From a virus (Monodnaviria; Loebvirae; Hofneiviricota; Faserviricetes; Tubulavirales; Inoviridae), in IMG/VR virus record IMGVR_UViG_2711768069_000001: a stretch of 10,788 nt of DNA; one strand, written 5' to 3'. A program made the translations under genes and the position numbers. Shown here in pieces: positions 9,031 through 9,123 of the stretch (its first letter is position 1; each line of letters starts with the position of its first letter). Below the pieces are notes generated by a model. It saw only the letters and a list, made by a program, of their open reading frames with translations, ran no database searches and was not told the DNA's origin.

Positions 9031-9123
9031 GGTTCGCACAATGACGTTATGCTAAAGAGGCCGCTGCGAGAGACATTTTCGCAGCGGCCTTTTCAACATA
9101 ACGTGTATGACATTATGCGCACC
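9031..9123. other. Phage-chromosome junction: two inverted imperfect dif-like sites flanking a 12-bp hairpin, ending in an exact dif XerC-arm (attP-derived forked-hairpin region fused to chromosomal dif)
   Basis: Minus strand of 9091-9123 reads GGTGCGCATAA-TGTCATACACG-TTATGTTGAAA; the XerC arm is identical to E. coli dif GGTGCGCATAA, with an 11-nt spacer instead of 6. Plus strand 9031-9057 reads GGTTCGCACAA-TGACG-TTATGCTAAAG. The two sites are mutually complementary (arms 9/11 and 8/11 plus a wobble, 6-nt bulge). Confidence 0.6.
9058..9093 (+). terminator. Perfect 12-bp stem, 9-nt loop hairpin followed by TTTT; terminator of the cargo operon and/or core of the attP forked hairpin
   Basis: AGGCCGCTGCGA-GAGACATTT-TCGCAGCGGCCT-TTT read directly, 30 nt after the gene D stop. 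Confidence 0.5.

Follow-up and report, generated by a model that had tools for sequence, protein, structure and literature searches.

A probable CTXphi-like two-site attachment region at the dif junction of an If1-like filamentous prophage of Escherichia coli

Introduction

The filamentous phage CTXphi of Vibrio cholerae integrates at dif through its attP(+), which carries two Xer sites in inverted orientation, attP1, whose spacer is 12 bp, and attP2, whose spacer is 5-7 bp, and specificity is provided by the bases beside the XerC arm (Val et al. 2005, reviewed in PMC4246890). Phages with a VGJphi-type attP likewise depend on an XerC-catalysed exchange at dif, but they do so through a single duplex site with a spacer of ~6-8 bp, and their integration is reversible. 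Ypfphi and CUS-1phi have been placed in the CTXphi class as related members (PMC4246890; PMC3442271). According to a review of Ypfphi, the encapsidated genome holds a potential inverted pair of XerC/XerD sites and integration rebuilds dif; the same review describes insertions between copies that fall outside the predictions of the classical model, and a phage that is mostly extrachromosomal in E. coli (PMC4266046). UPphi of the Enterobacterales is known as tandem filamentous prophages that occupy dif in E. coli and relatives and have accessory ORFs beside it; the words attP, hairpin and inverted are absent from the paper that describes it, and its attachment structure is undescribed there (PMC7307601).

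Here we analysed a 10,788-nt stretch of viral DNA (IMG/VR record IMGVR_UViG_2711768069_000001; hereafter the window), which is the right-hand, hipA-side junction of a filamentous prophage at E. coli dif. We hold it to be quite probable that positions 9031-9123 are the attachment region of a temperate If1-like filamentous phage that integrates via a folded strand and XerC, following the CTXphi scheme. An earlier note, made from the letters of the window only, had proposed CTXphi-like integration at this place; the anatomy of the region, its position at dif, the empty site, the rebuilt dif and the ownership of the module by the phage all bore this out, while the single-strand mechanism is an analogy with CTXphi. 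It is by this analogy that a single-stranded substrate, catalysis by XerC only and irreversibility would be expected.

The likeness to CTXphi is one of architecture. Both phages possess inverted long-spacer and short-spacer sites (12 and 5-7 bp in CTXphi, 11 and 5 here), share with dif only the bases beside the XerC arm, and lack an integrase (in our case none is annotated in the near-identical prophages and none was found among the ORFs scanned); both integrate at dif, rebuild dif at one end and form tandem arrays. They differ in host, in replication protein (RstA in CTXphi, a G2P-type protein here) and in what separates the two sites, which is ~90 nt in CTXphi and a 33-nt perfect hairpin in the window module, and we saw no sequence similarity between the two beyond the Xer arms. 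The mechanism has been shown experimentally for CTXphi only, and in the window phage it is predicted from sequence. Compared with a VGJphi-type attP, the window phage has two sites instead of one, and neither has a spacer that is usable as duplex. By description, UPphi is alike in forming tandem filamentous prophages at dif.

The relationship to Ypfphi (Yersinia pestis) and CUS-1phi (E. coli O18:K1:H7) is one of homology, confined largely to the module. The window module is ~92% identical over 85 nt to that of the NGF1 prophage, which is itself 99.6% identical to the Y. pestis prophage, and the order of elements, the spacers TGACG and CG..ACA, and the hipA-side position in E. coli are shared. 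The backbone is not: the Rep proteins give only a local 30% match, the cargo and the bulge differ, and at the DNA level the Y. pestis and NGF1 prophages resemble the window only in the attachment module and in one 67%-identical stretch of the secretin gene. The Rep of the JNE12-007-type phages is also unrelated to that of the window. The closest backbone is that of If1, an I-pilus-specific Inovirus, whose Rep is 72% identical over its full length and which shares a 58-nt stretch of the major intergenic region at 93% identity; the similarity search matched If1 at these two places only, and at neither the attachment module nor the cargo slot. If1 is not known as an integrating phage. The two-site module is already known from Ypfphi and CUS-1phi, and what is new is the If1-like backbone that carries it.

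Results

The window contains the hipA-side flank of dif

The right end of the window is chromosomal. It contains hipA (9200-10522, minus strand), which is 99.7% identical to hipA of K-12-type genomes, and hipB (10522-10788, minus strand), which was assigned from the annotation of matching loci. The distance of the XerC arm from the hipA stop codon (9200) is 76 nt, the same as in the empty site of the K-12-derived strain J53 and in line with the figure of about 76 bp that the earlier note had given for K-12. The K-12-type empty site of J53 is a plain 28-bp dif, ATTTAACATAATATACATTATGCGCACC, with the parts ATTTAACATAA-TATACA-TTATGCGCACC, and is followed by the same flank as the window from 9124 onward. 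The inverted-repeat structure is absent from this J53/K-12-type empty site, where dif stands alone, so that, in keeping with the earlier note, the two-site structure is no part of the empty chromosome. Most E. coli genomes align to the window from 9106 rightward only. The proposed integration at dif, and not elsewhere, held for all cases examined, the phage being located at dif in every one of them.

The first 43 nt of the hipA-side chromosomal flank (9124-9166) are identical to the K-12-type flank, and the phage carries a copy of them beside its own XerC arm; we found this phage-borne copy at the tandem junction of strain TO73 and at the left junction of strain 6EVA. The exact XerC arm alone is thus no proof of chromosomal origin, since the phage's own arm is identical and is accompanied by the 43-nt copy of the flank. 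The phage-borne copy remains identical to the K-12 flank throughout its 43 nt and then diverges abruptly. Flank sequences were read at the loci L005 (5693-5735 and 14895-14937), L004 (5693-5735) and L095 (5120-5165).

Two inverted dif-like sites enclose a perfect hairpin

Two dif-like sites stand in inverted orientation within the region, site 1 at 9031-9057 on the plus strand and site 2 at 9123-9091 on the minus strand. Site 1 is composed of a XerC-like arm, GGTTCGCACAA (9031-9041, plus strand; 9/11 to the dif XerC arm), a short spacer of 5 nt, TGACG (9042-9046, plus strand), and a XerD-like arm, TTATGCTAAAG (9047-9057, plus strand; 9/11 to the dif XerD arm). It is followed by the inner hairpin (9058-9090), a perfect 12-bp stem of AGGCCGCTGCGA (9058-9069) with TCGCAGCGGCCT (9079-9090) that closes a 9-nt loop. 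Site 2, read on the minus strand, comprises a XerC arm, GGTGCGCATAA (9123-9113), which is identical to that of E. coli dif at 11 of 11 positions, a long spacer of 11 nt, TGTCATACACG (9112-9102), and a XerD-like arm, TTATGTTGAAA (9101-9091; 9/11 to the dif XerD arm); on the plus strand the same segment, to the right of the hairpin, reads TTTCAACATAA-CGTGTATGACA-TTATGCGCACC. The earlier note had described a perfect 12-bp hairpin between inverted dif-like sites, one with a 5-nt and the other with an 11-nt spacer, and had equated the hipA-proximal 11-mer with the dif XerC arm; both descriptions were reproduced base for base.

Homology of the long spacer to dif is restricted to TGT at 9112-9110 (minus strand), which corresponds to the XerC side of the dif centre TGTATA, and the rest of the spacer is unrelated. 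When the whole window was scanned for the XerC arm with up to two mismatches, matches were obtained at site 1 and site 2 only, and no complete dif was found anywhere in the window within three mismatches. Neither the 11-nt nor the 5-nt spacer is one that XerCD could use in duplex form, as judged against the CTXphi values of 12 and 5-7 in PMC4246890.

A 135-aa ORF (9049-9456, plus strand) runs from site 1 through the attachment region into the antisense of hipA, and it is probably no gene. The in-frame ATG that it has within the XerC arm is found again in other flanks, but the ORFs that follow are short and their conservation is poor. On the same grounds, a small gene across dif or the XerC arm was rejected as the cause of the conserved flank.

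The packaged strand is predicted to fold into a bulged stem

From the orientation of the core genes and of the If1 match, the packaged (+) strand is the minus strand of the window, and on this strand site 2 stands in the polarity of the dif top strand. We folded the minus-strand single-stranded DNA of 9025-9130 and obtained the bulged stem around the inner hairpin that had been foreseen from the sequence, with a free energy of -32.9 kcal/mol (z = -8.3; 0 of 200 shuffles were as good); the plus-strand fold of the same segment reached -29.9 kcal/mol. In the predicted structure the two XerC arms pair with each other, the two XerD arms pair with each other, and the inner hairpin caps the stem, the XerC-like arm of site 1 being the bottom strand of the XerC-binding duplex. 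Between the arms, the spacers of the two sites pair at TG/CA and ACG/CGT around a 6-nt bulge. TG and CG of the site 1 spacer have CA and CG of the site 2 spacer as their partners, and the base between them in site 1 faces the bulge, which in the minimum free energy fold is 9110-9105 (TCATAC); three of its bases are hypervariable among relatives. The packaged strand is accordingly predicted to bring the sites together as one XerC and one XerD duplex around a bulged centre.

Conservation of the module among relatives

Pattern scans yielded 48 viral contigs with the module, and two matches (L012 and L042), which were chance matches in unrelated coding sequence, were dropped; a hairpin-anchored scan that left the Xer sites free added further modules. 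Most of the relatives were collected by patterns that fix parts of both sites, and only the hairpin-anchored scan is free of bias from this source. A scan of species-representative genomes detected the module in contigs labelled Yersinia pestis, Kluyvera, Lelliottia, Photorhabdus, Arsenophonus and Symbiopectobacterium, and also in two metagenome bins labelled Nanosynbacter and Ruminococcaceae, in which the flanks look like E. coli. Among 5,426 complete E. coli genomes, 940 contain the 85-nt module, at 804 chromosomal and 486 plasmid places. Many of the plasmid copies are the truncated form found in transposons.

Spacer lengths were 10-11 (site 2) and 5 (site 1) in 34/34 unique modules. The site 1 spacer was TGACG in 32 of them and TGGCG in the other two, so only the middle base, which faces the bulge, changes; the site 2 spacer occurred in 15 versions, all of them built as CG + variable + ACA. 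The XerD-like arm of site 2 was invariant in 32/34 modules, and in the XerC-like arm of site 1 the outer four bases vary among relatives and the inner bases are conserved. Across an alignment of 37 variants, the XerC-side TGT, which was part of no search pattern, showed zero entropy (37/37 variants), and stems and arms were near zero; the hairpin loop averaged 0.81 bits, and the three bulged positions had 1.6-1.8 bits each, with a mean of 1.21 bits over alignment columns 15-20. In these 37 variants 92.8% of cells pair in register, as against at most 52.5% when slid. Two similar binding sites set in inverted orientation would, however, look complementary without ever pairing. Covariation is weak: two pairs change on both sides, most columns are invariant, and 13 of 500 shuffles reach the observed percentage of paired cells. 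In Arsenophonus the hairpin stem, as read in the sequence, is changed on both sides and is still perfectly paired. This pattern of conservation fits a folded single-strand substrate cut by XerC only, as in CTXphi.

The same data bear on the possibility that site 2 by itself mediates integration of the double-stranded replicative form by an XerC exchange with dif, as in VGJphi, with site 1 and the hairpin serving otherwise, for instance as a cargo terminator or a decoy. Site 2 does combine an exact XerC arm, a XerD arm matching at 9/11 positions and the TGT homology, the junction left by such a duplex route would be identical, and the hairpin comes directly after the last cargo gene. Yet the site 2 spacer is 10-11 bp in all 34 modules whereas functional Xer sites have 6-8 bp, and the 12-bp attP1 of CTXphi has been reported to be unusable as duplex (PMC4246890). 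Free variation in the middle of a long spacer is not what a duplex centre would be expected to show, and site 1 keeps the very bases that pair with the site 2 spacer. A consensus terminator scan, moreover, gave no call for the hairpin as an intrinsic terminator. We therefore regard integration through a duplex site 2 as unlikely, and prefer integration of the folded strand.

Near-identical prophages place the exchange at the XerC arm

Nine complete E. coli genomes carry the prophage at 99.6-99.8% identity, the cargo region apart. The left junction of the window's own prophage lies outside the window, and we read it in such near-identical prophages only: in TO73 and 6EVA it is a canonical 28-bp dif, ~320 bp beyond the first base of the window, which is the rebuilt dif anticipated for this end. 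The hybrid site thus stands at the hipA end, in the window, and a canonical dif at the opposite end, in the near-identical relatives.

The tandem junction of TO73 keeps site 1, the hairpin, site 2 and the exact XerC arm; because the module is retained there entire, the whole of it is phage DNA. Both sites and the hairpin lie inside the phage unit at the tandem junctions of TO73, NGF1 and JNE12-007 alike. The two copies in TO73 (read in the loci L005 and L098) differ in cargo, in bulged bases and in flank variant, which indicates two separate integrations of different phage variants and not a duplication, and their order fits the entry of a second, different phage into the rebuilt left dif.

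Sequence differences between phage and chromosome served as markers of the exchange. In JNE12-007 the XerC arm of the phage ends in T (AGTGCGCATAA, at the tandem junction), as against the chromosomal C at the hipA-side junction. The phage-borne flank of 6EVA resembles that of K-12, and the chromosomal flank of this strain departs from it from the third base outward, at six positions, with no exchange between the two. The left flank of TO73 begins with gg, not aa. Together, these markers confine the exchange to ACA plus the XerC arm, that is, to 13-16 nt. This narrow zone is where XerC cuts, unlike the scattered crossovers to be expected of homologous recombination, and we infer that the XerC exchange point lies between 9113 and 9112.

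The markers also weigh on a second alternative, in which RecA-dependent homologous recombination integrates, and also excises, the replicative form via 54-57 bp shared by phage and chromosome. The shared stretch consists of three spacer bases, the XerC arm and the 43-nt flank, and is identical or nearly so. As the phage copy of the flank equals the K-12-type flank over 43 nt, flank copy and arm together form direct repeats of 54-57 bp that bracket the prophage, so that homologous recombination is physically possible; it has been raised as a possibility in the Ypfphi review (PMC4266046). The six positions at which the phage and chromosomal flanks of 6EVA differ were left unexchanged, however, and the markers of TO73 and JNE12-007 put the crossover within 13-16 nt at the XerC arm. 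Ypf-type and JNE12-type phages, furthermore, integrate at the same place without an identical flank, and the strict conservation of two Xer-like sites would go unexplained. This route to integration appears improbable, more so than the duplex one.

That the repeats are scars, degenerate hybrid sites left around an ordinary terminator by successive users of dif and now inert, is very improbable: element arrays at dif are common, hybrid sites do accumulate and part of the module is found out of context inside transposons, but the complete module lies inside the phage unit at tandem junctions and recurs in 40-odd viral contigs of various backbones and genera with arms and stem conserved, and it is the transposon copies without site 2 that have mismatches in the hairpin stem and the site 1 spacer, as expected once constraint is lost.

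Part of the module recurs inside dif-targeting transposons

A segment that comprises site 1, the hairpin, part of the XerD arm of site 2 and the gene or genes upstream (window 8927-9100) recurs inside a transposon of the IS1202 family (ISNCY), where it stands between the transposase gene and the right inverted repeat (L002, 9176-12230; L006, 1170-4215; L007, 3058-4125; L008, 5649-7073). In LD93-1 the transposon adjoins the XerC arm of a near-canonical dif, whose last arm base is T and not C, with a 5-bp duplication, AATAT; in plasmid pEND_Eco 16002 it adjoins a dif-like site of the plasmid, with the duplication AACAT. The passengers of these transposons differ, being a three-gene Zn-ribbon set, a STM4504/CBY_0614 protein or a SIR2 protein. 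Targeting at 5-6 bp from XerC arms and members that carry passengers, such as ISKpn21, have been published (bioRxiv 10.1101/2022.12.17.520857; PMC10132070). Since the word filamentous is absent from both of these papers, the link of such transposons to the attachment sites of filamentous phages seems to be unpublished.

Phage backbone and variable cargo slot

The remainder of the window is a filamentous phage genome with a replaceable segment. Its core genes (938-5605, minus strand), identified from the RefSeq annotation of 99.7%-identical prophages, encode a ssDNA-binding protein, small coat proteins, a 421-aa adsorption-like protein, a DUF2523 protein, a Zot-type assembly ATPase and a secretin. 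They are followed by a G2P-type replication initiator of the Ff/If1 gene II family (5618-6733, minus strand; Pfam PF05144 and PF05155) and by a 177-aa HTH_3 regulator (6836-7369, plus strand; Pfam HTH_3), which runs antisense to the core genes, takes the place of rstR and is 100% identical to the TO73 protein. Three GC-rich hairpins (7375-7438) are 93% identical to If1 5045-5101, part of the If1 major intergenic region, on the opposite strand. The same hairpins show 97.6% identity over 41 nt to the Alteromonas phage phiAFP1; conserved across such distant hosts, they may be an origin or packaging element. A megablast search against the phage collection returned only the short intergenic matches to If1 and the Alteromonas phage.

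Homology to TO73 and 6EVA breaks off at ~7438 and begins again at 9031, which defines a variable cargo slot (7439-9030, plus strand). In the window it holds an ORF for a membrane-protein-like product (7374/7464-7850, plus strand) and a set of three genes on the plus strand, 7860-8129 (Zn-ribbon protein of the ECs_2282 family), 8129-8608 (159 aa) and 8639-9028 (129 aa), which are 41-48% identical to the passenger set of the transposons. The relatives carry other cargo, namely MltR and DUF2971 proteins in one TO73 copy, a 358-aa protein in the other, and a 369-aa protein in 6EVA, and the combination found in the window is absent from complete E. coli genomes. We also looked for a second Xer-like site, as in a pdif module, where the slot begins on its upstream side, and found none beyond chance. 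When the cargo was compared with PADLOC, only the Zn-ribbon protein gave a match, a weak one to PDC-M14A (E = 2.9e-6); a role of the cargo in defence would be a guess from this match.

The left end carries accessory genes (1-803, minus strand), among them a HigA-family antitoxin-like ORF (164-430), according to the annotation of the relatives L004 and L005. A 14-bp palindrome, TTGCGCATGCGCAA, occurs at 457-470 and 832-845 of the window, where none is expected by chance, and two further copies stand in the left end as read in relatives (L005, 5886-5899 and 5984-5997). The window copies lie just upstream of the starts of two minus-strand ORFs, the HigA-like ORF at 164-430 and the ORF at 489-803, and by this placement the palindromes are probably operators for a phage regulator.

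Discussion

The reading that we prefer can be set out as a series of steps, modelled on CTXphi. The packaged (+) strand, which is the minus strand of the window, would fold so that site 2 pairs with site 1, giving a duplex for XerC, another for XerD, a 6-nt bulge at the centre and a cap formed by the 12-bp hairpin. Host XerC would then cut the phage strand and the dif top strand alike, after GGTGCGCATAA, and exchange them, the shared TGT holding the swapped strand in place. XerD would be unable to complete the reaction, and replication would turn the intermediate into a prophage; with no follow-up by XerD, it is replication that is proposed to fix the product of integration. The products would be a canonical dif at the far left end and a hybrid with an 11-bp spacer at the hipA end, and such ends were observed, the left one in the near-identical prophages. 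Because this hybrid cannot be presented to XerCD as double-stranded DNA, Xer-mediated excision would be blocked, and new phage would arise from rolling-circle replication across tandem copies.

None of these findings changes the known mechanism. They extend the hijacking of XerCD in the style of the cholera phage to a third enterobacterial backbone, the If1-like one. The natural variation of the module amounts to a ready mutational map, in which TGT and the arms are fixed and the bulge varies freely, and from which the important bases can be predicted. SIR2-like and other possibly defensive genes occupy the variable slot next to the site; the capture of this slot by dif-targeting transposons suggests that dif is a place where accessory genes are traded.

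A broader proposal is more tentative. The ~93-nt module and the adjoining cargo slot might constitute one portable unit, kept at >90% nucleotide identity across at least three backbones with unrelated replication proteins and across dif-targeting transposons of the IS1202 family, with the cargo switching exactly at the outer edge of site 1; the direct repeats created by the flank copy could, in addition, give a homology-based exit from an integration that is irreversible by Xer. Taken jointly, these claims are doubtful at present, but the portable module with its cargo slot, the transposon capture and the phage-borne host flank are what we consider most worth following.

As to the flank copy, it could be a relic of past phage ends, a product of aberrant excision or a functional extension of dif. 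A similar flank sequence lies beside dif in Y. pestis, where it adjoins a different gene (a ClC-channel-like ORF), and a similar sequence opens the left end of Ypf-type phages.
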